From positions 19,530,001 to 19,594,000 of the forward strand of contig OZ024745.1 of the NCBI GenBank assembly GCA_964016885.1: a stretch of 64,000 nucleotides of DNA, given 5' to 3'. This document shows positions 2,208 through 64,000 of the stretch, one piece after another (within the stretch, counting starts at the first letter, position 1; the number at the start of each line of letters is the position of its first letter). The notes under the pieces were generated by a model. That model was not told the origin of the DNA, did no database searches, and was given only the letters and a program-made list of their open reading frames with translations. The position numbers and the translations under genes are program-made. The stretch is from Eledone cirrhosa. Its lineage: Eukaryota.

Positions 2208-5200
2208 AGGTGGTAGGGTTGTCAGAGGGTTGGTAGGGTGGTTGGAGGGGTGGTAGGGTTGTCGGATGGGGTGGTAGGGTGGTTGGAGGGGTGGTAGGGT
2301 TGTCAGAGGGTTGGTAGGGTGGTTGGAGGGGTGGTAGGGTTGTCAGAGGGTTGGTAGGGTGGTTGGAGGGGTGGTAGGGTGGTTGGAAGGGTGGTAGGCT
2401 GGTTGGAGGGATGGTAGGGTGGTTGGAGGGGTGGTAGGGTGGTTGGAAGGGTGGTAGGGTGGTTGTAGGGGTGGTAGGGTGGTTAGAGGGGTTGTAGGGT
2501 TGTCAGAGGGTTGGTAGGGTGCTTGGAGGGGTGGTAGGGTTGTCGGAGGGGTGGTAGGCTGGTTGGAGGTGTGGTAGGGTGGTTGGAGGGGTGGTAGGGT
2601 TGTCGGAGGGGTGGTAGGGTTGTCGAAGGGGTGGTAGGCTGGTTGGAGGGGTGGTAGGGTGGTTGGAAGGGTGGTAGGCTGGTTGGAGGGATGGTAGGGT
2701 GATTGGAGGGGTGGTAGGGTGGTTGGAGGGGTGGTAGGGTTGTCGGAGGGGTGGTAGGCTGGTTGGAGGTGTGGTAGGGTGGTTGGAGGGGTGGTAGGGT
2801 TGTCGGAGGGGTGGTAGGGTTGTCGAAGGGGTGGTAGGCTGGTTGGAGGGGTGGTAGGGTGGTTGGAAGGGTGGTAGGCTGGTTGGAGGGGTGGTAGGGT
2901 GATTGGAGGGGTGGTAGGGTGGTTGGAGGGATGGTAGGGTGGTTGGAGGGGTGGTAGGGTGGTTGGAAGGGTGGTAGGCTGGTTGGAGGGATGGTAGGCT
3001 GGTTGGAGGGATGGTAGGGTGGTTGGAGGGATGGTAGGGTGGTTGGAAGGGTGGTAGGCTGGTTGGAGGGATGGTAGGGTGATTGGAGGGGTGGTAGGGT
3101 GGTTGGAAGGGTGGTAGGGTTGTCGGAGGGGTGGTAGGCTGGTTGGAGGTGTGGTAGGGTGGTTGGAGGGGTGGTAGGGTTGTCGGAGGGGTGGTAGGGT
3201 TGTCGAAGGGGTGGTAGGCTGGTTGGAGGGGTGGTAGGGTGGTTGGAAGGGTGGTAGGCTGGTTGGAGGGGTGGTAGGGTGATTGGAGGGGTGGTAGGGT
3301 GGTTGGAGGGATGGTAGGGTGGTTGGAGGGGTGGTAGGGTGGTTGGAAGGGTGGTAGGCTGGTTGGAGGGATGGTAGGCTGGTTGGAGGGATGGTAGGGT
3401 GGTTGGAGGGATGGTAGGGTGGTTGGAAGGGTGGTAGGCTGGTTGGAGGGATGGTAGGCTGGTTGGAGGGATGGTAGGGTGGTTGGAGGGATGGTAGGGT
3501 GGTTGGAAGGGTGGTAGGCTGGTTGGAGGGATGGTAGGCTGGTTGGAGGGATGGTAGGGTGGTTGGAGGGATGGTAGGGTGGTTGGAGGGATGGTAGGGT
3601 GGTTGGAAGGGTGGTAGGCTGGTTGGAGGGATGGTAGGCTGGTTGGAGGGATGGTAGGGTGGTTGGAGGGATGGTAGGGTGGTTGGAAGGGTGGTAGGCT
3701 GGTTGGAGGGATGGTAGGCTGGTTGGAGGGATGGTAGGGTGGTTGGAAGGGTGGTAGGCTGGTTGGAGGGATGGTAGGCTGGTTGGAGGGATGGTAGGGT
3801 GGTTGGAAGGGTGGTAGGCTGGTTGGAGGGATGGTAGGCTGGTTGGAGGGATGGTAGGCTGGTTGGAGGGATGGTAGGGTGGTTGGAGGGATGGTAGGGT
3901 GGTTGGAAGGGTGGTAGGCTGGTTGGAGGGATGGTAGGCTGGTTGGAGGGATGGTAGGGTGGTTGGAGGGATGGTAGGGTGGTTGGAAGGGTGGTAGGCT
4001 GGTTGGAGGGATGGTAGGCTGGTTGGAGGGATGGTAGGGTGGTTGGAGGGATGGTAGGGTGGTTGGAAGGGTGGTAGGCTGGTTGGAGGGATGGTAGGCT
4101 GGTTGGAGGGATGGTAGGGTGGTTGGAGGGATGGTAGGGTGGTTGGAGGGATGGTAGGGTGGTTGGAGGGATGGTAGGGTGGTTGGAGGGATGGTAGGCT
4201 GGTTGGAGGGATGGTAGGGTGGTTGGAAGGGTGGTAGGCTGGTTGGAGGGATGGTAGGCTGGTTGGAGGGATGGTAGGGTGGTTGGAAGGGTGGTAGGCT
4301 GGTTGGAGGGATGGTAGGCTGGTTGGAGGGATGGTAGGGTGGTTGGAGGGATGGTAGGGTGGTTGGAAGGGTGGTAGGCTGGTTGGAGGGATGGTAGGCT
4401 GGTTGGAGGGATGGTAGGGTGGTTGGAGGGATGGTAGGGTGGTTGGAAGGGTGGTAGGCTGGTTGGAGGGATGGTAGGCTGGTTGGAGGGATGGTAGGGT
4501 GGTTGGAGGGATGGTAGGGTGGTTGGAAGGGTGGTAGGCTGGTTGGAGGGATGGTAGGCTGGTTGGAGGGATGGTAGGGTGGTTGGAAGGGTGGTAGGCT
4601 GGTTGGAGGGATGGTAGGCTGGTTGGAGGGATGGTAGGGTGGTTGGAGGGATGGTAGGGTGGTTGGAAGGGTGGTAGGGTTGTCGGAGGGGTGGTAGGCT
4701 GGTTGGAGGGGTGGTAGGGTTGTCGGAGGGGTGGTAGGGTTGTCGAAGGGGTGGTAGGCTGGTTGGAGGGGTGGTAGGGTGGTTGGAGGGGTGGTAGGGT
4801 GGTTGGAAGGGTGGTAGGCTGGTTGGAGGGATGGTAGGGTGATTGGAGGGGTGGTAGGGTGGTTGGAAGGGTGGTAGGCTGGTTGGAGGGATGGTAGGGT
4901 GGTTGGAGGGGTGGTAGGGTGGTTGGAAGGGTGGTAGGCTGGTTGGAGGGATGGTAGGCTGGTTGGAGGGATGGTAGGGTGGTTGGAGGGATGGTAGGGT
5001 GGTTGGAGGGATGGTAGGGTGGTTGGAGGGATGGTAGGGTGGTTGGAGGGATGGTAGGGTGGTTGGAAGGGTGGTAGGCTGGTTGGAGGGATGGTAGGGT
5101 GGTTGGAGGGGTGGTAGGGTGGTTGGAAGGGTGGTAGGCTGGTTGGAGGGATGGTAGGCTGGTTGGAGGGATGGTAGGGTGGTTGGAGGGGTGGTAGGGT

Positions 5201-6140
5201 GGTTGGAAGGGTGGTAGGCTGGTTGGAGGGATGGTAGGGTGGTTGGAGGGGTGGTAGGGTGGTTGGAGGGGTGGTAGGGTGGTTGGAGGGGTGGTAGGGT
5301 GGTTGGAAGGGTGGTAGGCTGGTTGGAGGGATGGTAGGCTGGTTGGAGGGATGGTAGGGTGGTTGGAGGGGTGGTAGGGTGGTTGGAAGGGTGGTAGGCT
5401 GGTTGGAGGGATGGTAGGCTGGTTGGAGGGATGGTAGGGTGGTTGGAAGGGTGGTAGGCTGGTTGGAGGGATGGTAGGGTGGTTGGAGGGGTGGTAGGGT
5501 GGTTGGAGGGGTGGTAGGGTGGTTGGAAGGGTGGTAGGCTGGTTGGAGGGATGGTAGGCTGGTTGGAGGGATGGTAGGGTGGTTGGAGGGGTGGTAGGGT
5601 TGTCGGAGAGGTGGTAGGGTGGTCGGAGGGGTGGTAGGCTGGTTGGAGGGGTGGTAGGCTGGTTGGAGGGGTGGTAGGGTGATTGGAGGGGTGGCAGGGT
5701 TGTCGGAGGGGTGGCAGGGTGGTTGGAGGGGTGGCAGGGTTGTTGGAGGGTGGTAGGGTGGTCGGAGGGGTGGTAGGCTGGTTGGAGGGGTGGTTGGGTG
5801 GTTGGAGGGGTGGTAGGGTGGTTGGACGGGTGGTAGACTGGTTGGAGGGGTGATAGGGTGGTTGGAGGGGTGGTAGGGTTGTCGGATTTGTGGTAGGGTG
5901 GTTGGAGTGGTGGTTGGGTGGTTGGAGGGGTGGTAGGGTTATCGGAGGGGTGGTAAGGTGGTTGGCAGGCGGTAGGGTTGTCGGAGGGGTGGTAGGGTGG
6001 TTGGAGGGGTGGTAGGATGGTTGGAGGGGTAGTTGGAGGGGTGATAGGGTGGTCGGAGGGGTGGTAGGGTGTTTGGAGGGGTGGTAGGGTAGTTGGAGGG
6101 GTGGTAGAGTAGTTGGAGGGATTGTAGGGTGGTAGTGTGG
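2208..6140 (+). repeat. 20-bp G-rich minisatellite, consensus GGTTGGAGGG(G/A)TGGTAGG(G/C)T
   Basis: Strict 20-nt period visible in the column alignment; degenerate edges; about 195 units. Confidence 0.97.
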
Positions 6141-11077: not shown

Positions 11078-11140
<63 letters not shown>

Positions 11141-11348
11141 GGCGACCTACGTAGTAAATCGTATCATCGTGAGCTCCGCAAAGGTTTGTTATTTCCGTTT
11201 GTTAAAAATTGCCATTTATGGAAAATTTTATTGTTAACTGTTTATAAGCACACATACATTGTTTTCCGAAAAGGACACCCAAAAAGATTGGGGCCTTGTG
11301 CCCAAAATTTTAACTTTTATTATTATCAAAAAATTTCTTTGAAAAAAA

Positions 11349-11777
11349 ATGGCTACTTCACCTCTGCACGAAGCAGCTGAAAGCCTTCCTCACAAAATAA
11401 CACCTCACACCGACACCACCATTGTAAATGTTACTACGTTTGCCAACACAAAAAAAAATATAAGCAGTAGCAATATTTTAAATTTGTCTCAGGCAGACAT
11501 TCATTTCCCGCCATTACCAATGACTGCAGGTGTTAAAGCCTCCACCACCACCACCGCGACAATCACCACCACCACCACCACCGCGACAACAGAAACAAAA
11601 GAAGAAAAAAATAAATTAACTCGTGATATCGAAATGAAATCAAGCAAAATGGACTCTTCCCCACCAAAGACGACTGACGTCACCACCACCACAACTGAAA
11701 CTAAAATTAATATTAACGATAGCAACAACAACAACAATGACATTATAACCCCCCCCCCCTCAGTTTCGCCATCGTAG
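11349..11777 (+). CDS. Thr-rich N-terminal segment of Tx1 ORF1 (probably split from the main ORF1 at a C11 run)
   Basis: After the poly-C at 11749-11759 the ORF1 frame is open (SFAIVAKQFEAFM) into 11798. Confidence 0.55.
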   Translation: MATSPLHEAAESLPHKITPHTDTTIVNVTTFANTKKNISSSNILNLSQADIHFPPLPMTAGVKASTTTTATITTTTTTATTETKEEKNKLTRDIEMKSSKMDSSPPKTTDVTTTTTETKININDSNNNNNDIITPPPSVSPS

Positions 11778-11797
11778 CAAAACAATTCGAAGCATTT

Positions 11798-13333
11798 ATG
11801 GTAACTCAGGAAGATTTAGAAAATGCCAAACAAATGGTAAAGAAAGATGGGTACAGGGTCAGCCTCACGCCCCCACCTAATAAAATGGAGCATCGGCGCC
11901 TATGCACCGTGTCGTATAGAACAATACATGTAAAATCGCGTCGAGTGGAACGGGCATCCGAGTCCCAAATCCAAAAAGCTTTGGGACATGTGTGGGCAAG
12001 AAAAACCCACATCAGACGTGGGCAAAAGTATGGAACCGTGGATGTGTTCTTTGAAACACCAGAGGAGGCTAGAGAACACTCCATGGCCCCATTAAAAAGT
12101 GACGACTTCACACTCGTCCCAAGCTATTGTGGCCAGAGACTCGTAAAGATCAGGGTGACCCACGTTCCACCGGCCATCGAAATTCCCTGGCTAATAGCGG
12201 CTGTCCTCGCCGGCATCGAGGCCAACACGAAAATAATAACAATAGCAAAAGAAAAGCAGGAAAACTGGTCCGGATCTGGGATGGAGCTCCTGATCCAAGC
12301 GGACCAAAAAAGCATTGAGGAGATCCCAGAGGTAATAGACCTCACTGACGGCAGCCACCTCACGGTAATTGTCGAGGGCAGAAGACCTAGGTGTGTCGTT
12401 TGTGGTGAAGGAACCCACCTAAGGGCTTTCTGCCCTCAGGCTAAAAGGTTGAGGCCACCTCTCCTACCCACCCCAGTGACACAACCATCAACACCACCAG
12501 TAGCAGAGATGGCAGCAACAACTGTGGCAGCAACAACAGAAGCAACTATAACAGCAACAACCCCAGCAACAGTAGCAAAACCAACACCACTACCACCACC
12601 AGCAAAACCAACACCACCACCACCCAACGCTTCAGAACTAGCACCAGCGCCTACACCATCCACCACACCACAACCAAAACTAACGGCTGTGGAGGATTTT
12701 CCACTCCCCGGCCTATCACAACTGGAGACAGATTGTGACGACGAGGAGTGGGAAACGATATCCGGAAAAAAAAAAAGAAACCAAAAAAGAAAAAATTCTC
12801 TTCCTTCCCCCTCCAAAAACAAAATACAGAGGGAAACAAATAAACTAAGAAACAAAAAAGTTAGGACAGATATGCCACCATCCACACCAGCATCACCAAC
12901 CCCATCAACCCAAACACCAACACCATCACCATCATTAACTCCAACACCACCATCACCTACACCACAAAAGTCACCAAAATGCGAAACAGAAACAAACCCA
13001 CAACAAACGCAAACAAAACAAAACAACCAAAACGATACACACTACACAGCATTAAATTTGAACAACAAGCAATTATTGCACTACATCCAACACAACACCA
13101 GCATCACAGAAAAAGACTACACAACAACCCCAAAATTCACACCACCTCCACACATACAAATCACTCGCATCACACAGAAAACGTACATGACACGAAAACA
13201 AAAATTCCCCAAAGACATCGGAGACTTCCGACAAGCACTCTCCAGGAGGATTTATAAGGACATCCTTCCTGAGGAGGCCACAAGCAGTGAAAAGGATGGA
13301 AAAACCGTCCTTCCCCTACGAGAAGTAAGGTAA
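11798..13333 (+). CDS. Tx1 ORF1 (gag-like nucleic-acid-binding protein)
   Basis: CVVCGEGTHLRAFC = CX2CX4HX4C knuckle, followed by a Pro/Thr-rich region and WETISGKKKR basic patch. Confidence 0.88.
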   Translation: MVTQEDLENAKQMVKKDGYRVSLTPPPNKMEHRRLCTVSYRTIHVKSRRVERASESQIQKALGHVWARKTHIRRGQKYGTVDVFFETPEEAREHSMAPLKSDDFTLVPSYCGQRLVKIRVTHVPPAIEIPWLIAAVLAGIEANTKIITIAKEKQENWSGSGMELLIQADQKSIEEIPEVIDLTDGSHLTVIVEGRRPRCVVCGEGTHLRAFCPQAKRLRPPLLPTPVTQPSTPPVAEMAATTVAATTEATITATTPATVAKPTPLPPPAKPTPPPPNASELAPAPTPSTTPQPKLTAVEDFPLPGLSQLETDCDDEEWETISGKKKRNQKRKNSLPSPSKNKIQRETNKLRNKKVRTDMPPSTPASPTPSTQTPTPSPSLTPTPPSPTPQKSPKCETETNPQQTQTKQNNQNDTHYTALNLNNKQLLHYIQHNTSITEKDYTTTPKFTPPPHIQITRITQKTYMTRKQKFPKDIGDFRQALSRRIYKDILPEEATSSEKDGKTVLPLREVR

Positions 13334-13367
13334 GTGGTCTTTCCCATCTTTTCCACTCCTTTTCAAC

Positions 13368-16300
13368 ATGACCTCACTCAGAATAGGCAGCATAAATGCG
13401 CGTGGCTTGGGGTCGTCATGGAAGCAGGGCCACCTGCTCAACGACCTCAGGTCACTAAACATAGATGTAGTGGCCATCAGCGAGACCAGAATCTCCGAAG
13501 CACAGGCTTTCGCACCGATCTTCGGCGGCTACGATGTGTACGCATCTCCCAGCCGTCCGGGATCGGGGGGAGGAGTTGCTGTGCTTTTTCGGAGAGGTTT
13601 GGATCTTGCCATACGGGCCATCTTCCTGGACCCAGAAGGTAAGTTGGTGGTGCTGGACGTGACCAGCGGAGACGGGCAAGCTTTCAGGTTAGTGGCCGTC
13701 TATGCCCCGACAGGAGCAGGGCGGCCTGATTTCTTCCGGCGTCTGGAGACCTTTCTTGGAACGTCCCGCTCTTTAGTGTTAGTGGGCGACTGGAACGGGA
13801 TCTTAGATGCACGCTGGGATTGTGTGGGATTAGTGGATAGGGAAGGAGGGTGCAAGAGTCTCACCAACCTGCTCAGACGTTTTGAACTGTCTGACAGGTA
13901 CCGAATGGATTTCCCGAATGTACCAATGTGGACTTGGACAAATCGCATACGGTCATCCAGATCATATCTAGATAGAGTATTTTGTAGGGAAATAGATAGG
14001 TCTAGCATAGGCTGTCCACAATTCAAGATAGTCAGCTACACGGACCACAAATTCGTGATCTGTGTGCTTGAATTAGATAGGCTTCATAGACAAGGACCCG
14101 GCTACTGGAAGCTAAACGCGTCCTTACCAGCGCGCAAGGCCTACAGAGACCGGATTAGCGAACTAGTTAAGCGGGCGTTGACGGGGGCCATCGTCAACAA
14201 CAAGTGGTGGTTTGCTCTGAAAAGAGCAATTAGAATAGAGTCCATTAGGTTTAGTAAGACTTTAGCAATAGAGAAAAATAGAGCAGAGGGAGAATTAGTT
14301 AGAAAATTAGATGAGGCGCTTAGCAAAGGCATCGCGACCGACGTACTTGCGGCGAAATTGGCCCTTGACCAATTCTTCAATGCAAAGCACGAAGGCTGCG
14401 TTGTCAGAGCTAGGGTGCGTGCTCTCAGACACGAGGGGACGAAAGCCGTTGAATGGGCCCGAGTGGCGGAGGCGCGTCGTGGCAACAAAGCCACGATCCG
14501 GTCTTTGGTGGACCACGACGGGCGCATGCTACTCGATCCCGGGCAAATGTGTGAAGCTTTTCAGCGACACTTCGCTCAACTGTTCGGGGGCAGTGGCGGG
14601 CCGGATCGAGGGATGGACTTTAGTGTCTACCTCGACGGACTGCCGCGGCTTTCGGCCACTGAGGCGGAGTGTTGCGAAAAGCCGATAACAACCGCTGAAG
14701 TACGGGATGCAATGACTAGTTGCACAAGGGGCAAATCGCCTGGTTTGGATGGTCTGCCCTATGAACTTTACGTACAAATGCCAAACTTGTTCGGAGGCCT
14801 CTTGGCGGACGTCTACTGCAACTGGCAACAGAACGGGAGAATTCCCAGCTCTGTGAGCCGAGGAGCGGTGGCGCTGCTGAGAAAGGATCCGAACAAGGGG
14901 GATAACATAGATAATTTTAGGCCCATAACTCTGCTAAACACAGAGTTCAAGATTTTGGCCAAGGTGCTAGCAAAGAGGTTGGCGCTTGTCGTTGGTGGTC
15001 TGGTGGGAGAGGCACAGACATGCGCCATTCCCGACAGATCCATCCACGACAACCTCCACCTCATGCGATACATCGTAGAGAGGGTAGCTAGGGAACCTGG
15101 CACGGGTGGGTCTTTGATCAATTTAGATCAGTCGAAAGCCTTCGATAGGGTCGACCATCGTTACCTAGCGGCAGTCCTGAGGGCGGCTGGCTTTGGGCCC
15201 GTCTTCAGAGGCTGGATCGCTGCCATGCACAGCGACATCTGCTCTGTAGTGAGAGTGAACGGTCACCTTTCGGAACCGTTCAACATCATGCGCTCGGTCC
15301 GCCAAGGATGTCCCCTCTCGTCCCTATTGTACGTATTGACTCTCGAGCCATTACTGCACAAACTGGAGACGTTGAGGGGGGTCCCGCGCGAACTAGGATG
15401 CGGAAGATCCGTGTCAGCATATGCCGACGATGTCACCGTAGTGGTGTCGAACGCCAAACACATCGAGGCGATCGGCACTACACTAAGAGAATACGAAGCG
15501 GTGACAGGAGCAATGATCAACCAGGAAAAGTCAGTGGGCCTGCAGCTCGGCACCTGGAGAGGCAGGTCCATGCCGTCCAACAGCGTCGTCGGGCGCTGGA
15601 CGGACGGACCGGTTAAATTGCTAGGGGTCTGGTTCGGTCCAGACCTCCAGACGGACAAAAACTGGGACGAGGTGACGAGCAGGGTGGCTTCTCTCACCCA
15701 GAAATGGGCCGAGAGGAAGCTATCCCTAAAAGGTCGAGCGGAGGTGGCGAATGCGTACATCGCATCCGTCATCTACTACCGCCTGACCGTCGTACCTTGT
15801 CCTAAGCCCCGCCTGACTGCGCTGGAGCGTTTGCTCTTTCGCTTCTTGTGGAAGGGACGCGCTCCGATGGTCAGGCGGTCCATCTGCTGTCAACACCCGC
15901 TACGTGGAGGGCTGGGCATGCCGTGGCTGATGATGCGCAGACACGCGCTCAGGCTACGACATCTCCACCTCTTCCTCGACGGTGATCAGGTGTGGTCGCC
16001 GTTTGCAAGACACGTTTTTCCCCAGCTCGTCTCCTTGACGGAGCTGCAGTCCTGGGTCAAGCGAAGACCGAGAGGGAGCGCTTGGAGACTGGAATGTCTT
16101 CAGGCGCTCACAGCCCTCGACCAATCGGGCAATGTGATCGGTGGAAACTCCACCTTGGCGTTCTATAGGGGATTAGTGGAGGGGAAGAGCGACGACGTAC
16201 TTGGAGAAACTCTAGGCGTCGACGAAAATCAACTAGCCAATCTCTTCGGAAGGACTTTCGGGCCGGGGCCTATGGACAACTTCCAGAAATCCCTGGCCTG

Positions 16301-16787
16301 GCAGTGCTACCGAGGAGCTTTGCCAGTTCGGGATAAACTCTACAGGCATGGAGGTGCCGTCAGCCGGGCATGTCCGAGATGCGCGCAGGGCGACGAAACC
16401 GTCCTGCACGCACTCGTCCAGTGTCCGAGCATTGCTGACTTGTGGGTTTATGTCGAACACCTGCTGTCACGTGTAGGACGGATCCAGCTATCAGCTGAGT
16501 CCATCGTGAGGATTGCCCCACCCCCTTCCTTTAGCCTGGAAGGGCAGGCAGTTTTTATCTGTCTGGTGGCCATGGCGAAAGAGATAGTATGGTGGACACG
16601 TTTGAAAGGGCTGAAGACGAGCACTTACCTCTTCGGTGATGCCCTGATTAACTTTTTCAAATTTCATTTGAAAAGGAAAATCAGGGTAGAGAGGGAAGTG
16701 CTCTCTTCCCAGCATTTTGTTGAAAGATGGGTGAGAGAAGCAAGTATGGCCCGAATGAATGGGCCTTCTCTGAGTATGTGTCTGTAA
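13368..16787 (+). CDS. Tx1 ORF2: APE endonuclease + reverse transcriptase + C-terminal zinc finger (1139 aa, uninterrupted)
   Basis: SINARGL, ISET, VYAP, GDWN, YLDR, YTDH (APE); WKLN; KSPGLDG, FRPITLLN, LDQSKAFD, VRQGCPLS, YADD (RT); CPRC..H..C. Confidence 0.96.
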   Translation: MTSLRIGSINARGLGSSWKQGHLLNDLRSLNIDVVAISETRISEAQAFAPIFGGYDVYASPSRPGSGGGVAVLFRRGLDLAIRAIFLDPEGKLVVLDVTSGDGQAFRLVAVYAPTGAGRPDFFRRLETFLGTSRSLVLVGDWNGILDARWDCVGLVDREGGCKSLTNLLRRFELSDRYRMDFPNVPMWTWTNRIRSSRSYLDRVFCREIDRSSIGCPQFKIVSYTDHKFVICVLELDRLHRQGPGYWKLNASLPARKAYRDRISELVKRALTGAIVNNKWWFALKRAIRIESIRFSKTLAIEKNRAEGELVRKLDEALSKGIATDVLAAKLALDQFFNAKHEGCVVRARVRALRHEGTKAVEWARVAEARRGNKATIRSLVDHDGRMLLDPGQMCEAFQRHFAQLFGGSGGPDRGMDFSVYLDGLPRLSATEAECCEKPITTAEVRDAMTSCTRGKSPGLDGLPYELYVQMPNLFGGLLADVYCNWQQNGRIPSSVSRGAVALLRKDPNKGDNIDNFRPITLLNTEFKILAKVLAKRLALVVGGLVGEAQTCAIPDRSIHDNLHLMRYIVERVAREPGTGGSLINLDQSKAFDRVDHRYLAAVLRAAGFGPVFRGWIAAMHSDICSVVRVNGHLSEPFNIMRSVRQGCPLSSLLYVLTLEPLLHKLETLRGVPRELGCGRSVSAYADDVTVVVSNAKHIEAIGTTLREYEAVTGAMINQEKSVGLQLGTWRGRSMPSNSVVGRWTDGPVKLLGVWFGPDLQTDKNWDEVTSRVASLTQKWAERKLSLKGRAEVANAYIASVIYYRLTVVPCPKPRLTALERLLFRFLWKGRAPMVRRSICCQHPLRGGLGMPWLMMRRHALRLRHLHLFLDGDQVWSPFARHVFPQLVSLTELQSWVKRRPRGSAWRLECLQALTALDQSGNVIGGNSTLAFYRGLVEGKSDDVLGETLGVDENQLANLFGRTFGPGPMDNFQKSLAWQCYRGALPVRDKLYRHGGAVSRACPRCAQGDETVLHALVQCPSIADLWVYVEHLLSRVGRIQLSAESIVRIAPPPSFSLEGQAVFICLVAMAKEIVWWTRLKGLKTSTYLFGDALINFFKFHLKRKIRVEREVLSSQHFVERWVREASMARMNGPSLSMCL

Positions 16788-17055
16788 ATTAAAGGTGGAA
16801 AACTGGGAGAGGGCACTTGCCCTGGTGGTCAGGGCCACTGTGGTCTTTTAATGGGCTTTCTCCACAAATGTCCCTTGGAAGTCTCCCCCCTATTGGGGAA
16901 TTTTTCTTTGTTATTTTATTTCAACCTCTGTTTTTTTACACGCAGAAAGCCCATTTGTACCGTCCTGTATTGTCCTGTACTGTCCTTAATGTCTACTTTA
17001 TGTGAACCCTTGTGGTTAATAAAGAAAACATTATTATTATTATTATTATTATTAT

Positions 17056-34407: not shown

Positions 34408-37400
34408 AGAAAAATTAAAAATAACCAGACATAGGCGAGGCATAAAAACCCTATGTTTTAATGTAGAGGTATTAGTATGTATAAAAACCAGCCACTATAT
34501 TGTAAATATCAGTATTCCTGAATGAGACATGTATCCATAATGTGTGAAAAGTAATGATCTTATGTTTAGTTTTTTAAAAAAATTCATATGTTTATGTGAT
34601 AACTACAAACATCTATGTGAATTTACATGATCAACTCTGCAAACCCTAAGTTCACGGAAAACATTCTCATTGTGCTATAAAAATTTAAGTATACATATAT
34701 GTGTATATATATACACACAAATATATATAGAGTCAATATTACTACTATTCCTGTCTTTACTCTACAAGATTATCTATCAAGCAGAAATAGAGAGCAGATT
34801 TCAATATACTAATAAAAATATATATCAGAAACAAAACCAAAAAATAACAATAATAATAATAATAAGTAATAATAAAATAGAAAACTAAAAAAACTAAAAA
34901 ATATTACGAAAGAATATTACATATTAGAAATATTACATATTAAAAATATTAAAAATAAAAATATTAGAAAATACTACAATAATAAAAATAAAAATAAACC
35001 ACAAAGATCAACCCTTCAAAATTAATTGACAATATATTGCCAAGTTCATTATAAGCATCAGAGTCGAAAAACAGATAAAGCTAAGAGTCGAAAAACAGAT
35101 AAAGCTAAAAATTATTTATCAAATCGCATCTAGCAAAGATCATTTCAAAAAGTTTAGGATGCCCAATTGGTCTACATGTGTTCTTATATTTAATATAGAA
35201 GTTTATCTAGTGTAACGTTTATTCGAAATATTTGGAGCATCAACTTATAGGGTAGCTTAATTTTTCATGAAGAATGTTTAAATAAAAATAAAAATAAAAA
35301 ATAAAAAGAATAAAAAGAAGAAATCGAAAGATTTATCGGCTAGTTTCCCATATAATTATAAATCAAACTAAATATACTACATTTTAAATTTAAATTTATA
35401 TTTAAACGTTGAGTTTAATCTATGTTTGCAGCAACTGAATAAATTTGTCCGTAGATTAAGGGAATTTTTAGATTTTAGTATAAAGAATATCTCCTCTGCG
35501 CAGAGGTCACATGTCTCAGAGGATGAATTAAAAGGAATCCCTCTTGAGACTATATTCCAAGCCGTCGAATATCCAACGTTATCTAGCTTAAGTTGCCAGA
35601 GTACGCCTGATAGTGCCGTTGAAGATTTTTTGCTTGGATCTGTGAAAGAATTCTTGTGGTTATTATAGCGAAGTTTAAATTCCGTCGATGTGGAACCGAC
35701 GTAGTTAAAAGAATTAGAGTCAGTTTTAACATTACAATTGTATACTATATTTTTAACTAAGCAGTTGTTATTTAACGGACATTTAGATCTATCTCTACAG
35801 TTACATTTGTTAACTTGTATATTATTTATGCTATTATCACTAGGTTTTAAGTTCCTATTATTTATTCTATTAATATTTTGTGCTAAATTTTTGGTGGATG
35901 AGTAGGTTAATTTTATAGTATGTCTATTGAAAATTGAGTGATACCTATGTGTTCTAGGGAAGCGATTATCAAGAGCTTTAAAAAATAGTTTAGCGATGTG
36001 CGTTTTAATGTTTAGTGAGAAAGGGGGGGCAAACCAAATTATGTTCCTAGTTCTATTTCTTTTTTGGCCTTTGGAATTATTGTAATGCTTTCTATTATCG
36101 AATAGAAAGATTTTCGACGAAAAAGCCCAATACTACAATGAAGCATTAGCTAGAGCAGGATATGCTGATAAGATTGTGTACATAGATAATGATAGACAAA
36201 CTAAACAAAATAACAACTATTTTAATTACGGCAACAACCTTAACAACTATAATAGAAAGCATTACAATAATTCCAAAGGCCAAAAAAGAAATAGAACTAG
36301 GAACATAATTTGGTTTGCCCCCCCTTTCTCACTAAACATTAAAACGCACATCGCTAAACTATTTTTTAAAGCTCTTGATAATCGCTTCCCTAGAACACAT
36401 AGGTATCACTCAATTTTCAATAGACATACTATAAAATTAACCTACTCATCCACCAAAAATTTAGCACAAAATATTAATAGAATAAATAATAGGAACTTAA
36501 AACCTAGTGATAATAGCATAAATAATATACAAGTTAACAAATGTAACTGTAGAGATAGATCTAAATGTCCGTTAAATAACAACTGCTTAGTTAAAAATAT
36601 AGTATACAATTGTAATGTTAAAACTGACTCTAATTCTTTTAACTACGTCGGTTCCACATCGACGGAATTTAAACTTCGCTATAATAACCACAAGAATTCT
36701 TTCACAGATCCAAGCAAAAAATCTTCAACGGCACTATCAGGCGTACTCTGGCAACTTAAGCTAGATAACGTTGGATATTCGACGGCTTGGAATATAGTCT
36801 CAAGAGGGATTCCTTTTAATTCATCCTCTGAGACATGTGACCTCTGCGCAGAGGAGATATTCTTTATACTAAAATCTAAAAATTCCCTTAATCTACGGAC
36901 AAATTTATTCAGTTGCTGCAAACATAGATTAAACTCAACGTTTAAATATAAATTTAAATTTAAAATGTAGTATATTTAGTTTGATTTATAATTATATGGG
37001 AAACTAGCCGATAAATCTTTCGATTTCTTCTTTTTATTCTTTTTATTTTTTATTTTTATTTTTATTTAAACATTCTTCATGAAAAATTAAGCTACCCTAT
37101 AAGTTGATGCTCCAAATATTTCGAATAAACGTTACACTAGATAAACTTCTATATTAAATATAAGAACACATGTAGACCAATTGGGCATCCTAAACTTTTT
37201 GAAATGATCTTTGCTAGATGCGATTTGATAAATAATTTTTAGCTTTATCTGTTTTTCGACTCTTAGCTTTATCTGTTTTTCGACTCTGATGCTTATAATG
37301 AACTTGGCAATATATTGTCAATTAATTTTGAAGGGTTGATCTTTGTGGTTTATTTTTATTTTTATTATTGTAGTATTTTCTAATATTTTTATTTTTAATA

Positions 37401-38688: not shown

Positions 38689-38739
38689 AGATTCCTGATG
38701 ATTTCTAATGAATGAAACAGTTCTAGTCCTGTAGAATCT
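38689..38739 (+). ncRNA. Type I hammerhead ribozyme in 5' pLTR
   Basis: agauuc-CUGAUGA-uuucuaaugaau-GAAA-cag-uucuaguc-cug-UA-gaaucu; 6-bp stem I; predicted cleavage after GUA at 38733. Confidence 0.85.
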
Positions 38740-38869
38740 CATCTATATTAAAACTGTTATACTCTGCTATGTATTGAGTACCTTACTTACTGTGGTTACC
38801 TCCGATTCAACCCGGAATAACGTACATTTTAGCACTCTCTGTGCCCCTTATAACCTTCATCAAGAAACC

Positions 38870-41012
38870 ATGCTGACCAAACTCGACCTTGATATTTCCT
38901 TGAAGAACATCCCTATCCCTCCAAGGAAACTATACTTAAAAACACTCATCAGACGTACCGACGAGTTCATCAAGCGAATTAGATGGAGGGCCTTCTTCCT
39001 CGACAACCCTGATGTAGCATCTACCAATGATGAGAAGTTCGGCTTCAAAACGAATAAGACACCACCCACCAACAGCCTACTCCAACCATTTGAGGAAGAC
39101 CTCTTCAAGATGATCAAGGATATTAAATTCCGTAGAGCCACCACACCATTCCAGGCCTACTTAAATGCCGAATTACGGAATATAAAAAAATCCCCTAATC
39201 TTTATGTCTCCTCCGATAAAACCAAAAACGTTTATGAGGTAGACCCACAGACCTACAATAAGCTGGCATAAAATACCATCACGACCACCTACAAAAAGGT
39301 AATAGAGAGGGCGCTGACTGAGACAAACGCGGCCGGAAAAGAAATCGCCAAGTCCCTTAAATTACATGACCGAACCGAACCTTTAAGGGTAAAGACCCCG
39401 CACTTTACCCTGAAGGACCATAAGGGAAATTTCCTCAACAAACCATCAGTCAGACTTATCAACCCCACTCGTTCTGACATCGGCTCTATCAGTAAGAAGA
39501 TCCTGGATAGAGTTCTACCATTATTGCGGGCGGCCTCACCACTTCCACTCTGGAGTAGAACATCTGAGGCAATATCATGGTTCCGAGAATTACCCGATAA
39601 ACACCACACTCGCTTCCTGCAACTCGACATAGAAAACTACTATGCCTCTATCTCGGAGCCCCTCCTGAAGGACGCAATTAACTTTGCCAGGAATTTTACC
39701 ACCATTACCGATGCCGAGCAAGTTATTATCCTCCACGCTCGTAAGACCTTTCTATACCACGATGGATCTTACTGGATCAACAAGAAATCTCAGACCCCAT
39801 TTGACGTTAGCATGGGGGCGAGTGACTCGGCTGAAATTAGCGACCTTGTGGGCCTGTACATCCTACATAACCTGAAGAACCTCTTTACTGGCCTAACTGG
39901 AGGTTTATACCGAGACGACGGCCTCTTCACCCTGCATAAGGTTAGCCCCAGAACCACCGATGGGTTTCGGAAAAACTTAAGCTCTGTCTTCTCTAATCTA
40001 GGATTTAGTATAACTATAGATTCTAATTTGACTAGGGCCAACTTCTTAGATGTCACTCTCGACCTAGATACTTCCCTCTATTACCCGTACCACAAACCTA
40101 ACGAGTCCCTTAAATATATTAATGTTAATTCAAACCACCCCCAAAACATTACTGATAACCTAGTAAAAAGCGTCTCTATTAGAATATCTGGCCTCTCCGC
40201 CAACAAAGATATTTTTAATGCATCTGCCTCCTACTACAATGACGCCCTAGCCCGTAGCGGATTTAAAGATAAGATAACTTACCTAGAAACCACCGCAAAA
40301 TTGCAGAGGAGGAATAGACATAGGCAGATTAGCTGGTACAACCCTCCCTTCAATAGAGAGGTATCTACTCCGATAGCTAGGATTTTCTTCACTTTACTGA
40401 AATTACACTTCCCCATACAACATAGGTACTACACCATCTTTAATAAGAACACTATAAGACTGTCTTACTCCACCACACCTAACCTAGCTAGGAATATAGC
40501 CAACCACAACTCTAAACTAAATAAGCCAACCACCTCCGAAACCAACCCCCGGACTGGGGCTCTATGTAATTGCCTAAATAAGGAAGCATGCCCACTAGAA
40601 AACAAATGCCTCACAAATGACATCGTATACAAATGCGATGTCATCTCGGGCACCGAGGATTGCAAAAAAAACTTACATCGGCATGACCTCCAACACCTTT
40701 AAGACCCGCTGGTATGCCCATACCCACTCCTTCAGAAGACCGGATAAATCAAATCAAACAACACTCGCCTCCTACGTTTGGGACCTCAAAAGGAACTCCA
40801 CCCCCTTCACGCTTAATTGGAAAATACTCCAGAAAGCGCGCTCTTACAACGGAGGACACAAGGGCTGCGACCTTTGTATTTCAGAGAGCTACGAAATTTT
40901 ATTCGCCAAGGGCCCGCTACTGAACAAACTCTCTGAACACTGCCCGAACTGCATGCACAAGAACTTTGCAACATTCAAACACTTTAAGCCAGTGTTAAAG
41001 CCCGATGGCTAA
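38870..41012 (+). pseudogene. PLE RT + GIY-YIG ORF with one nonsense codon (39269-39271) and one frameshift (A run near 40663-40670)
   Basis: SLKNIPIP, SDKTKN, TLKDHK..RLINP, LDIENYY, MGASDSAEI, LYRDDG, FLDV, CNCLNKEACP, IVY..YIGMT, CDLC. Confidence 0.92.
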
Positions 41013-48163: not shown

Positions 48164-48505
48164 GTATATATATATATACATTTCAAATTTCAAATTTCAA
48201 AATTTTTCAATGCTTCTTAAGTCAACCAGTTGTTTACTAATGTAGTTACAGACTTAATCTCACCGAGGTTTAATCTTGCCTAGAAACTGCGAGATACGGG
48301 TTCGATTCCTCTCTCCGTCTCCAGGGATATTTTACCCGAATTTATAAACTATTATTTATAGTGATCCACTATTATTATAGACATTTACGTTGGGACGCCG
48401 ACATTCCACATTTCATCTATACATACGATATAAGGTTTCTAACCTTTCTCTATCCTCCACAATCCGTGTTAAGTGCTTCTCTCTTTCGTTTCTATACGAG
48501 ATGGG

Positions 48506-48542
<37 letters not shown>

Positions 48543-51278
48543 TTCTTTATTTACCATAAAGGCATAAAAAGAAGGGACAAATACAAAGGGGGAGTTTACA
48601 TATAATCGAGTAAAAAGGGTGTAACATGAAAATAATCGAAAATAACCTCAAAAGGGAGGGGACGTGATGGGGGTTGCACACACCCCCGAAAAAGTGTGCA
48701 ATCCTTTGCCCGGGGAGCACATGGAGAAGGTGCTCCCCTCTCCTTTACTTCTTTACCTACAGGATGGTATACAGAGAAGGCCCATTTACACGAGCCATTC
48801 TCGCCACTATCACCCACCTTTCATAAAACTGCCTGTGGCCAAGCACCTCTCTCTCCATTCTTATCCTTCTTCCGAAGTGATATCGGAAGAAGTAGACCAG
48901 ACTATGGCCAGAGAGGAAGTTGCCTGACCTCAGACCTTTCAATCGTGTCCACCAAACAACCTCTTTCAACATGGCTATTACGCACAGAAAAACCGCCTTT
49001 GCTTCCTTTGTGAAGAGGGGAGGCGGTTTGATTGTCATCACGGACTCGGCGGTCAATTTAATCGGCGCCACCCGCGACAGCAGTTGTTCGGCGTAGCCCC
49101 ACAGATCAGCCACGCCCGGACATTGCACCAATGCCTGCGCAACGGTTTCTTCGTGACGCACGCATCTAGGGCAAATCTTTTTTGAGGGATCCCTGCCCGG
49201 GCGCCCGTGTCTGTAGAGCCTCTCTCGAACGGGTAGAGCCCCCCGGTAGCACTGCCAGGCCAGTGACTTCTGGAAGTTGTCCATTGGTCCTGGGCCGAAA
49301 GTCCTACCGAACAGGCTGGCCAGTTCGTCTTCTTCCATGTCCAGCGACTCTCCAAGGGTGTCATCGCCCCTGCTAGCCACCAGCCCTCTATAGAATGCTG
49401 AGGTGGATTCTCCACCGATGGCCTGGCCCGCTTGCCAGAGAGCCCTGAGCGCCTGAGCACACTCAGTGTGCCAGTCTCCCAGTTTTCCGGATCTTTGCTT
49501 GACCCAGGACTGTAGCTCGGTGAGTGAGACGAGTCTCGGAAAGGCTCGTTTCACGAACGGAGCCCACACCGGTTGACCAGTGAGGAATACCTGTAGGTGC
49601 CGTAGCCTTAATGCGTGCCTACGCATCATCAACCACGGCATCCCCAGCCCTCCTTTCGAAGGTTGTTGGCAGCAGATGGATCTTCTCACCATAGGAGGAC
49701 GCTTCTTCCAAAGAAATTGGAAGAGCATGCGTTCCATGGTGGTGAGTGTTTCCTTAGGGCAAGGCACGACAGTCAGGCGGTAGTAAGTGACGGACGCTAT
49801 GTAAATGTTCGCCACCTCCGCCCGGCCTTTTAGGGACAGCTTACACTTGGCCCATTTCTGGGTTAGTGCAAACACCTTGTTCGTAACCTCGTTCCAGTTC
49901 TTTTCCACCTGGAGGTCCGGTCCAAACCAGACCCCAAGCAACTTTACCGGGCCCTCCGTCCAGTGTCCGACGACACCGTCAGGAGGCATCGGTCTGCCTC
50001 TCCACGTTCCGAGTTGCAGCCCGATGGATTTTTCCCGGTTCAGTTTCGCTCCTGACAACCTTTCGTAATCCTCCAGTAAGGTACCGATCGCCTCGATCTC
50101 CGAGTTGGTCGATACCATTACTGTTACGTCATCGGCGTAGGCCGACACCGCTTTGCTCAATCCTGGTTCCAGTGGGATACCCTGCAACAACTCCAACTTC
50201 CTCAGTAAAGGCTCGAGAGTCAATACGTACAGAAGGGAGGAGAGAGGGCACCCCTGTCGAATGGATCGTGTGATTTCGAACGGCTTCGAAAGGTAGCCGT
50301 TCACCTTGATCCTAGAACAGATGTGGTTGCTATGTAGGGCAGTGATCCAGCCTCTGAAAACAGGACCGAACCCAGCCGCCGCTAGCACCGCATCCAGGTA
50401 ACCATGGTCGACCCTATCGAAGGCCTTAGACTGATCTAAGTTGATCAGGGCCCCACCGAAGCCGGGTTTGTTGCCAACCCTCTCTATGATGTATCGCATG
50501 AGGTGGAGGTTATCGTGAATGGACCTGGATGGGATAGCACATGTCTGCGCATCTCCCACCAGGCCTCCCACGACAAGCGCCAACCTCTTTGCTAACACCT
50601 TGGCCAAAATCTTTAACTCTCGTCCTTCCTCACTAGCGTGACAGCACAGGGAATTCTCCCGTTCTGTTGCCAGTTGCAGTAGACCGCCTCGAGGAGTTCG
50701 GGGAACAAGTCCGGCATAGCTAGATATAGTTCGTATCGAAGACCATCGAGACCCGGGGGTTTGCGTTTGCCGCATTGGCTCAGCACGTCCTCTATCTCAG
50801 CGGCTGAAATCGGCTCCTCGCAGGACTTCGCCTCCCTGTCCGAGAGACGCGGCAGGCCGTCGAGGTATGGACCGAAGTCCACGTCCCCAACCGGCCCCCC
50901 GCCCCTTCCGAACAATCCGGCAAAGTGTTTTTGAAAAGCCTCGCACATCTGCTTAGGTTCAAGGATCACCCGTCCATCCTGGTCTCGCAAAGACCGGATA
51001 GTGGATCTGCTCCCTCTTTTGGCTTCTGTCACGCGGGCCCAGCTAACAACTTTGGTCCCCTCGTTTCCCAGAGCACGTATTTTGCTTCGGACGGTGCAGC
51101 CTTCGTGTTTCGCGTCGAAGAACTGGCCCAGGGCCGTTCTCGACGCTAGCACTCTGGCCACGTCGCCGCTTCTAATTGCCTCTTCTACACTATCTACCAA
51201 CTCCCTTTCCTTCCTATTTCTATTTGAGGCTAACTCCTTACTAAATTCTATAGAGACTACTCTAATCTCCCTTTTGAG
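48543..51278 (-). mobile_element. Second Tx1-clade element (5'-truncated) inserted in (GATA)n
   Basis: ORF2 remnant colinear with 13368-16787; (GATA)n at 48506-48542 and 51279-51368; 3' end ggtaAATAAAgaaa then (TCTA)n. Confidence 0.92.
48757..51278 (-). pseudogene. Tx1 ORF2 RT region, APE domain missing, deletion/frameshift near 50615-50645
   Basis: LDQSKAFD, IRQGCPLS, YADD, CPRC; the GDNIDNFRPITLLN block is deleted relative to the first Tx1. Confidence 0.9.
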
Positions 51279-51321
51279 AGATAGATAGATAGATATATAG
51301 ATAGATAGATAGGTAGATAGG

Positions 51322-51368
<47 letters not shown>

Positions 51369-59859: not shown

Positions 59860-60490
59860 TAATAATAATGAAATTATTGTGTAAAGTGCTCAGCTGCACT
59901 ACAACTCGTCAAAGGTGCATGTATAGTACATAGAATAATATACAAATGTCAGCGAAGTGAATAGTGTATGAGTCATGATATACATGTGTGTATGTGTATG
60001 GAGGGGGAACATTAGGTGTAGTGTTGGCGAATCTCGGGAAGCATGGAGGTTTTAAAGGATGCAGTATCTCGACAGCTAACAACTGATGCAGGGAGTTTGT
60101 TCCATGGAGGTTTTCAAGGATGCAGTATCTCGACAGCTAATAACTGATGCAGGTACTTTGTTCCGTGAAGGTTTTAAAGGATGCAGTGTCTCGACAGCTA
60201 ATAACTGACGCAGGGAGTTTGTTCCATGGAGGTTTTCAAGGATGCAGTATCTCGACAGCTAATAACTGATGCAGGTAGTTTGTTCCATGGAGGTTTTAAA
60301 GGATGCAGTGTCTCGACAGCTAATAACTGATACAGGGAGTTTGTTCCATGCTTCAGCAACTCTGAGCGTGAAAAAATGTTTCCGAAAGTCATGGGAGCTA
60401 TGTTGTTTTCTGACTTTGTAGGCATACCCACTGTGTTGGACACATGGAGATGAAAAAGGTGCTCAGGGTTGTTGTTGGCGAGATGGTTAA
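59860..60490 (-). mobile_element. CR1/L2-like LINE 3' end with an internal ~61-bp tandem repeat (~5 copies, 60042-60349)
   Basis: FFTLRVAEAWNKLP-type C-terminal motif; repeat catggaggttttaaaggatgcagtatctcgacagctaa... Confidence 0.65.
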
Positions 60491-61445: not shown

Positions 61446-61849
61446 TAGACATACACATATCTATATACATACATACACACAGACATAGATGCCTGTCTAC
61501 ACACATACATACACATGCATATATACACATACATATGGATGCCCACTCACATACAATCAAATGATAATATTCCAATTACGGACTCAATACATGGTGTCTC
61601 GTCGTTAGTAGTGGTGGTGGTTGGGTGTAGTGGTTGATGGCGGTGATGGAGTTGGCGTCTAGTAGTTAGTGGTGTTGATGGTTGGCTGCAGCTGTTGATG
61701 GCGGTGATGGTTGGCTGCAGTTGTTGACGGTGGTGATGCTTGGCAGTGGTGCTCGGGGTTTATGGTGATGTTTGTTCTAGTTGATGATGGTAGTGCCTGT
61801 TGATGGTAGCAATGATGGCGGCTGGGTGTTGTTGCTAACAGGAGTAGTG

Positions 61850-64000
61850 GTTAAGTGTTAATGGCGGCGGTGGTGGTAGTGGTTAGTAATGGTTAGGTGT
61901 TAATGGCGGCGGTGGTGGTAGTGGTTAGTAGTGGTTAGGTGTTGATGGTGGCGGTGGTGGTAGTGGTTGGTAGTGGTTAGGTGTTAATGGTGGCGGTGGT
62001 GGTAGTGGTTAGTAATGGTTAGGTGTTAATGGTGGCGGTGGTGGTAGTGGTTGGTAGTGGTTAGGTGTTAATGGTGGCGGTGGTGGTAGTGGTTGGTAGT
62101 GGTTAGGTGTTAATGGTGGCGGTGGTGGTAGTGGTTAGTAGTGGTTAGGTGTTAATGGTGGCGGTGGTGGTAGTGGTTGGTAGTGGTTAGGTGTTAATGG
62201 TGGCGGTGGTGGTAGTGGTTGGTAGTGGTTAGGTGTTAATGGTGGCGGTGGTGGTAGCGGTTGGTAGTGGTTAGGTGTTAATGGTGGCGGTGGTGGTAGT
62301 GGTTGGTAGTGGTTAGGTGTTAATGGTGGCGGTGGTGGTAGCGGTTGGTAGTGGTTAGGTGTTAATGGTGGCGGTGGTGGTAGTGGTTAGTAGTGGTTAG
62401 GTGTTAATGGTGGCGGTGGTGGTAGTGGTTAGTAGTGGTTAGGTGTTAATGGTGGCGGTGGTGGTAGTGGTTGGTAGTGGTTAGGTGTTAATGGTGGCGG
62501 TGGTGGTAGTGGTTAGTAGTGGTTAGGTGTTAATGGCGGCGGTGGTGGTAGCGGTTGGTAATGGTTAGGTGTTAATGGTGGCGGTGGTGGTAGTGGTTAG
62601 TAGTGGTTAGGTGTTAATGGTGGCGGTGGTGGTAGTGGTTAGTAGTGGTTAGGTGTTAATGGTGGCGGTGGTGGTAGTGGTTAGTAATGGTTAGGTGTTA
62701 ATGGTGGCGGTGGTGGTAGTGGTTAGTAGTGGTTAGGTGTTAATGGCGGCGGTGGTGGTAGTGGTTAGTAGTGGTTAGGTGTTAATGGCGGCGGTGGTGG
62801 TAGTGGTTAGTAGTGGTTAGGTGTTAATGGTGGCGGTGGTGGTAGTGGTTAGTAGTGGTTAGGTGTTAATGGTGGCGGTGGTGGTAGTGGTTAGTAGTGG
62901 TTAGGTGTTAATGGCGGCGGTGGTGGTAGTGGTTAGTAGTGGTTAGGTGTTAATGGTGGCGGTGGTGGTAGTGGTTAGTAATGGTTAGGTGTTAATGGTG
63001 GCGGTGGTGGTAGTGGTTGGTAGTGGTTAGGTGTTAATGGTGGCGGTGGTGGTAGTGGTTAGTAGTGGTTAGGTGTTAATGGCGGCGGTGGTGGTAGCGG
63101 TTGGTAATGGTTAGGTGTTAATGGCGGCGGTGGTGGTAGTGGTTAGTAGTGGTTAGGTGTTAATGGTGGCGGTGGTGGTAGTGGTTAGTAGTGGTTAGGT
63201 GTTAATGGTGGCGGTGGTGGTAGTGGTTAGTAGTGGTTAGGTGTTAATGGTGGCGGTGGTGGTAGTGGTTAGTAGTGGTTAGGTGTTAATGGCGGCGGTG
63301 GTGGTAGTGGTTAGTAGTGGTTAGGTGTTAATGGTGGCGGTGGTGGTAGTGGTTAGTAGTGGTTAGGTGTTAATGGTGGCGGTGGTGGTAGTGGTTAGTA
63401 GTGGTTAGGTGTTAATGGCGGCGGTGGTGGTAGTGGTTAGTAGTGGTTAGGTGTTAATGGCGGCGGTGGTGGTAGTGGTTAGTAGGTGTTAATGGTGGCG
63501 GTGGTGGTAGTGGTTAGTAGTGGTTAGGTGTTAATGGTGGCGGTGGTGGTAGTGGTTAGTAGTGGTTAGGTGTTAATGGTGGCGGTGGTGGTAGTGGTTA
63601 GTAGTGGTTAGGTGTTAATGGTGGCGGTGGTGGTAGTGGTTAGTAGTGGTTAGGTGTTAATGGTGGCGGTGGTGGTAGTGGTTAGTAGTGGTTAGGTGTT
63701 AATGGCGGCGGTGGTGGTAGTGGTTAGTAGTGGTTAGGTGTTAATGGCGGCGGTGGTGGTAGTGGTTAGTAGTGGTTAGGTGTTAATGGTGGCGGTGGTG
63801 GTAGTGGTTAGTAGTGGTTAGGTGTTAATGGTGGCGGTGGTGGTAGCGGTTAGTAGTGGTTAGGTGTTAATGGTGGCGGTGGTGGTAGTGGTTAGTAGTG
63901 GTTAGGTGTTAATGGTGGCGGTGGTGGTAGTGGTTAGTAGTGGTTAGGTGTTAATGGCGGCGGTGGTGGTAGTGGTTAGTAGTGGTTAGGTGTTAATGGT
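61850..64000 (+). repeat. 42-bp G/T-rich minisatellite GGTTAGGTGTTAATGGTGGCGGTGGTGGTAGTGGTTAGTAGT
   Basis: About 50 units running off the window end; degenerate lead-in from about 61600. Confidence 0.96.

Follow-up and report, generated by a model that had tools for sequence, protein, structure and literature searches.

The question raised by one LINE remnant in the genome of the octopus Eledone cirrhosa is whether close relatives within a single lineage insert into different microsatellites and, if they do, what sets the target word. The remnant lies between (GATA)n repeats in a 64,000-nt stretch of contig OZ024745.1 (positions 19,530,001 to 19,594,000, hereafter the window, whose own numbering is used throughout). 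An earlier, sequence-only reading had paired it with a second element at 13.4-16.8 kb as close sisters of the Tx1 type, offering a natural pair for mapping specificity determinants of the endonuclease (APE) domain. Target choice of APE-type LINEs is usually credited to this domain.

Anatomy of the window copy

The window copy is a chimeric, truncated member of a young L1-group (Tx1-type) LINE radiation, composed, on the minus strand, of the following parts:

48506..48539 (-): 3' flank, (TATC)n, opening with the target word TATCT (register from duplications in other family B copies)
48540..48756 (-): family B 3' UTR, no poly(A); 1309 genome matches to the B end
48757..50617 (-): family B ORF2, 3' part, with RT (start missing), thumb, wrist and CCHC zinc finger; 99% to full-length B
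50618..51282 (-): fragment of family F ORF2 reaching from the linker to the beginning of RT, truncated at its 5' end and without APE; 98% to F, 81% to B
51279..51368 (-): 5' flank, (TATC)n, sharing microhomology with the truncated F piece and followed by (TTTC)n up to 51447

The 3' UTR contains a short hairpin (48552-48564), an AATAAA (48546-48551) and a terminal GAAA-TC, and the fold of the 3' end has a z of -2.9 for B and -0.3 for the equivalent of family A, to which the second element belongs. (GATA)n indeed occupies both sides (48506-48539 and 51279-51368), with (GAAA)n farther out.

Identity profiles mark the copy as a chimera of two GATA-targeting families, with 2.07 kb of B on the 3' side and 0.65 kb of F on the 5' side. 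Positions 48540-50617 are 99% identical to B, and the 49600-50610 stretch within them is 87-88% identical to F; positions 50650-51281 are 98% identical to F and 81% to B. B and F join at AGAG, a short microhomology, where 52 nt are missing, and an extra 15-nt deletion lies near 50640. F-like copies at another locus (L286) also adjoin TATC repeats, and no second copy of the chimera was found among 40 scored hits. This arrangement fits a template switch within a single insertion as well as recombination between stacked copies at a later time. Because the 5' (GATA)n adjoins the F piece, the window locus alone is no proof that the repeat is target rather than tail.

Several other features lie in the window. 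A short stretch beside the window copy (48225-48500) carries a box-B-like GGTTCGATTCC motif and is possibly a tRNA-derived SINE. Several LINEs with a C-terminal restriction-like endonuclease motif, which we take to be Dong/R4-like, are stacked in (TAA)n arrays at 6.5-27.2 kb, in antisense orientation to the family A copy. An inverted ORF pair (35377-36132, minus strand, and 36086-36970, plus strand) and a degraded RT-like ORF (38735-40702), all within 35.0-41.0 kb, look similar to Penelope-type elements; a Pfam search of 39272-40699 gave no hit. Long minisatellites with 20-, 61- and 42-bp units occupy 2209-6133, 60042-60350 and 61843-64000.

The family A copy and classification

The second element is a full-length copy of family A, on the plus strand:

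11078..11140 (+): 5' flank, (ATT)n
11141..17029 (+): full-length family A element, ending in AATAAAGAAA-AC; 6859 genome matches to the A end
11741..13333 (+): family A ORF1 (stop-to-stop frame) with a CX2CX4HX4C knuckle
13368..16787 (+): family A ORF2, intact, 1139 aa from Met, with APE, RT and zf-RVT
17030..17055 (+): 3' flank, (ATT)n

The three identical peptides reported between the two ORF2s are present, as is the common 3' terminus, both elements finishing in GGTWAATAAAGAAA plus two bases. The window ORF2 matches that of family A at 434 of 620 positions (70%) from RT to the C-terminus and at 59% over the linker. In the hairpin loop of the APE domain, the window A copy reads TNRIRS near 13950, where most other A copies read TNRIGS.

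Pfam assigns Exo_endo_phos, RVT_1 and zf-RVT to family A, with which full-length B and D (a further family, below) align end to end, giving an ORF2 with an N-terminal APE, an RT and a C-terminal CCHC finger, the architecture of the L1 group and of Tx1. The ORF2 profile matches L1 ORF2p at E = 4e-200 and R2 at 2e-72, and the best Foldseek hits are L1 ORF2p. Elements of the Tx1 clade have a separate ORF1 with a CX2CX4HX4C knuckle; this motif is found in ORF1 of both A and B, and the sequence-specific insertion with target-site duplication that marks the clade is also present. The main targets of Kibi and Koshi, (TC)n or (TTC)n, are not those of the present families, as TCTCT follows 2 of 100 B ends and a (TTC)n array 1 of 100 A ends. 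We infer Tx1 membership from this architecture rather than from a tree with named Tx1 elements (Tx1L, Kibi, Koshi, Keno), and an atlas search returned generic APE-RT clusters only.

Target words genome-wide

The 3.0-Gb genome was searched with A and B end patterns, which miss copies with G at one flank position, and flanks were tallied by eye over the first 100 listed of 6859 A and of 1309 B matches. The A ends are followed by ATT in 99 cases, 93 of them ATTAT, and in none by TATC, while the B ends are followed by TATCT (85), TATAT (8), TCTCT (2) or other words (5), and in none by ATT. The expectation that different lineages use different targets thus holds. Poly(A) is absent from these 100 A and 100 B ends and from the listed D ends.

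The 5' junctions carry the same motifs. Among 27 resolved B junctions, 22 have at least two TCTA units, three have one and two have none; for truncated B copies, the motif is at the 5' side in 9 of 11. ATT repeats, one of them very short, adjoin all 16 resolved A junctions (the other four of 20, L086, L087, L097 and L100, gave no resolved junction). A background sample of 20 evenly placed 10-kb stretches (200 kb; arrays of at least 16 bp) contains 229 (TA)n, 32 (AC)n, 17 (TC)n, 9 (ATT)n and 2 (TCTA)n arrays. (TA)n is rarely used, though ~100-fold commoner than (TATC)n, and A resides in long (ATT)n arrays even though ATTAT words abound (1148 per 200 kb).

Target-site duplications separate target from tail. 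Most of 20 B sites chosen for a short 3' repeat (one replaced in the analysis by a neighbouring D end) show a duplication with TATCT at both ends, and in a B subfamily ending in TA the duplication starts exactly 2 nt past GAAA. Of 46 B copies tested, 38 have a 5' copy of the site; the register is unique in 13, with exact lengths of 15-20 bp and starts at TATCT (11) or TATAT (2). No added repeat units were seen at the B sites tested. Since the duplications carry TATCT at both ends, the repeat is target DNA, a claim that had been drawn from the window locus, where it does not follow, and that stands on the duplications of other copies. Indiscriminate insertion among AT-rich repeats, or a repeat added by the element as a tail, has next to no probability left and is refuted: B does accept TATAT and TCTCT, and TCTA is missing at the 5' side of two of the 11 truncated B junctions, but neither family takes the other's word in its first 100 listed ends, the tallies do not follow the background arrays, and the motif stands at both ends of duplications.

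Sister clades and further targets

Full-length B is 5.8 kb long, with ORFs intact in many copies. Its identity to A is 60% in the APE domain (141/235; 94 differences), 76% in RT, 67% overall and 28% in ORF1. A quick tree built from the C-terminal half of ORF2, with 30 of 32 genomic rows (two family E rows of short coverage omitted) and four outgroup proteins (40% identical), revealed two clades, one of the ATT families (SH-aLRT 97) and one of the TATC families B, B2-4, C and D (99). A and B are therefore members of sister clades with several families each, not close sisters, and with 94 differences between their APEs, 40% of positions, they form a weak pair for mapping specificity determinants.

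Searching the common 3' end with other flanks yielded further families and two nested target shifts, in family C and in a derivative of family D (D'). The target words are ATTAT for A, TATCT for B and D, ACTCT for C and AATAT for D'. The C site, T|ACTCT, lies in a 72-bp tandem unit, and the C and B APEs are 76% identical. C copies (L209, L355-L360) sit at one phase of this unit, frequently in head-to-tail series and close to the ends of contigs; a similar tandem unit holds one B copy (L238). An initial count of 24 for family C was an artefact of the last letter of the search pattern. The proposed radiation of one Tx1 lineage over microsatellites is upheld in that each lineage has its own target, but needs widening, the targets also including the 72-bp unit (C) and unique AT-rich DNA (D').

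Family D gives 1092 matches, mostly with TATCT, and a TC-AAT form at 15 of the first 100 listed ends. Full-length D copies (L321-L354) begin with their own TATC/TC-like stretch, and the mosaic haplotypes of the D 5' regions suggest that stacked copies often recombine. B and D are alike in target although their APEs are only 67-68% identical and their hairpin loops differ, and D and D' differ in target with the same APE (below), so neither the domain as a whole nor its hairpin loop tracks the target.

A target shift with unchanged APE

The TC-AAT form, D', gives 110 matches, and the 100 listed read AATAT (83), AATAA (11), AATC (5) or AATG (1). A 5' copy of the site is present in 20 of 36 copies, in the context (A)(A)Y|AATAT, and D' sites are thus true targets. 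Left of the insertion, Y occupies -1 in 20/20 (background 0.45) and A occupies -3 in 16/20 (0.38); at -2, D' has A in 13/20 and D has T in 7/8, and at -1 D' has T in 7/20.

Comparison of 17 AATA-type (D') with 35 TATCT-type (D) copies revealed four diagnostic bases in 5.8 kb: a Q>R change in a low-complexity Thr/Gln-rich stretch of ORF1, two synonymous changes and D932Y in ORF2. The group-majority APEs of D and D' are the same, and exactly this APE sequence is carried by 10 of the 26 TATCT copies free of indels and by 3 of 5 AATAT copies, the remaining changes being sporadic; in one D/D' pair, residues 1-433 show no difference. As the full-length D copies were for the most part chosen for an APE resembling that of a D' copy, this establishes that TATCT copies with the same APE exist, rather than that every D copy carries it. 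Y932 is found in 21 of 21 AAT[AG] copies covering the site, in 0/34 TATCT copies and in 0/3 AATCT copies. D' forms one clade, so the shift counts as one evolutionary event. With ~110 copies and a shift from C|TATCT to (AA)Y|AATAT under the same APE, D/D' is a better experimental pair than A/B.

Several candidate refinements fell away. D238E, K291R and other D/D' differences of a first small alignment disappeared with more copies. A satellite target is rejected, since unique AT-rich DNA houses most D' copies and a 59-bp array only a few. AATCT copies do not form a transitional subclade; they have the D haplotype and no private substitutions in common, and some of these flanks may be point mutations. 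No D' subclades tracking the +5/+6 base were found, with little power in this comparison. At two loci (L191 and L205, C1 35.2-36.2 Mb), D' is inserted repeatedly at one phase of a ~59-bp repeat that contains YAATAT.

How the target word may be set

Target choice is likely made in part by the RNA tail of the element, or by one residue outside the DNA-cutting domain. Left of the insertion point, the families have A-W-Y in common, as ATT (C, and A by repeat register), ATC (B and D) or AAY (D'). RNA cannot pair there, and this motif is therefore likely read by protein. The five bases right of the cut vary between families, and their complement primes reverse transcription. Transcripts are cut 10-30 nt downstream of AATAAA; with AATAAA 6 nt before the element end, they would likely run into the flank. 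Priming by L1 needs four matched bases (PMC3649969), and target-like RNA aids initiation by SART1Bm and R1Bm (PMC7265360).

We propose, with confidence evenly poised, that the target word is set in two steps, a loose nick by the protein and then pairing of a read-through RNA with the primer, the donor flank being the guide. The protein would nick a loose A-W-Y| site, the RNA would read through past the element end into the donor flank, and its tail would pair with the freed primer; a founder landing off target would hand its new flank, and hence a new target word, to its daughters. What we infer here is where the bottom strand is nicked, that transcription runs past the element end, that the RNA pairs with the primer, and that the target word is inherited from the donor flank. 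That specificity is itself RNA-inherited, with the read-through flank as a five-base guide and one off-target landing founding a subfamily under an unchanged enzyme, is a credible reading that falls a little short of an even chance. The slightly changed left context of D' counts against the RNA-tail model, as RNA cannot read those bases, and so does the residence of A in long (ATT)n although ATTAT is common, which needs more than five bases of recognition. No clear case of a flank base copied from RNA was seen in any copy examined.

Protein alone may instead set the target, by APE divergence for A versus B and by D932Y or the ORF1 change redirecting D' through DNA contact, an account we consider tentative and somewhat on the improbable side. 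The A and B APEs do differ at 40% of positions, hairpin loop included, and loop grafts alter nicking by L1 (PMC1950540), but such grafts give no modular transfer of specificity, and the same source names RNA-target pairing as a possible extra filter; moreover, B and D keep TATCT despite their dissimilar APEs and loops. For D', residue 932 lies between two helices past the thumb in the predicted ORF2 structure (pLDDT 84), in a region that aligns loosely with the L1 wrist, whose surface lines the cleft that receives the melted top strand (PMC7617806). A radical D-to-Y change at a helix junction of this predicted wrist, perfectly linked to the shift, keeps a protein cause live, and the left context has shifted slightly too; a clade with a single founder, however, ties any SNP to the shift by descent.

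It is improbable that D' RNA was mobilised in trans by another, unsampled family with an AATAT-preferring enzyme. The 3' end is common to all families and the window copy itself joins two of them, but D' has copies with intact ORF2 (L191, L192, L201, L350), no other AATAT-flanked family occurs among 90 loci chosen for non-ATT, non-TAT ends, and mobilisation in trans would not by itself favour one haplotype.

Relation to known elements and significance

Tx1 families residing in microsatellites have been described, with Kibi in (TC)n, Koshi in (TTC)n and crocodilian elements in (TTCC)n/(TTTC)n (PMC4494074; PMC3812793), and the mechanism has been called poorly understood (PMC3812793). The present families resemble these as APE-type LINEs whose relatives occupy different microsatellites. 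They differ in their targets, which are (ATT)n and (TATC)n arrays, a tandem unit of 72 bp and unique AATAT sites, and in that all occur in one genome as young copies (98-100% identical) with one shift that left the APE unchanged.

Domain order, fold and duplication lengths are similar to those of human L1 ORF2p (PDB 9HDR, 9K6I, 8UW3), as are the W-rich bases beside a nick before a purine. Unlike human L1, the present elements lack poly(A) at the 3' junction and have a fixed 3' end after a hairpin and AATAAA; their ORF1 carries a CCHC knuckle, and the pairing partner would be a read-through flank, where L1 snap-velcro priming uses poly(A) (PMC3649969). R1Bm, R7Ag and SART1Bm of the R1 clade are likewise APE LINEs in which target-like RNA aids accurate initiation, but they belong to another clade, and there the tail sharpens accuracy at a protein-defined site (PMC7265360).

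No published case came to light in which the RNA tail carried a natural change of target. In the article texts searched, there was likewise no (ATT)n or (TATC)n Tx1 target, no cephalopod Tx1 target and no natural switch with an unchanged APE; active L1-Tx1 families are listed in a repeat annotation of Octopus that does not mention the word 'target' (PMC13282606).

The A/B split alone would be a further example of an already known phenomenon. D and D' are set apart by a single residue of ORF2 outside the APE, a single residue of ORF1 and their flank, a contrast suited to telling control by protein from control by RNA. Either cause would be informative, yielding a specificity residue outside the endonuclease or RNA-inherited targeting; if the latter is true, the shift from D to D' would be a founding event of this kind observed as it happened, and new targets could be programmed through the tail.
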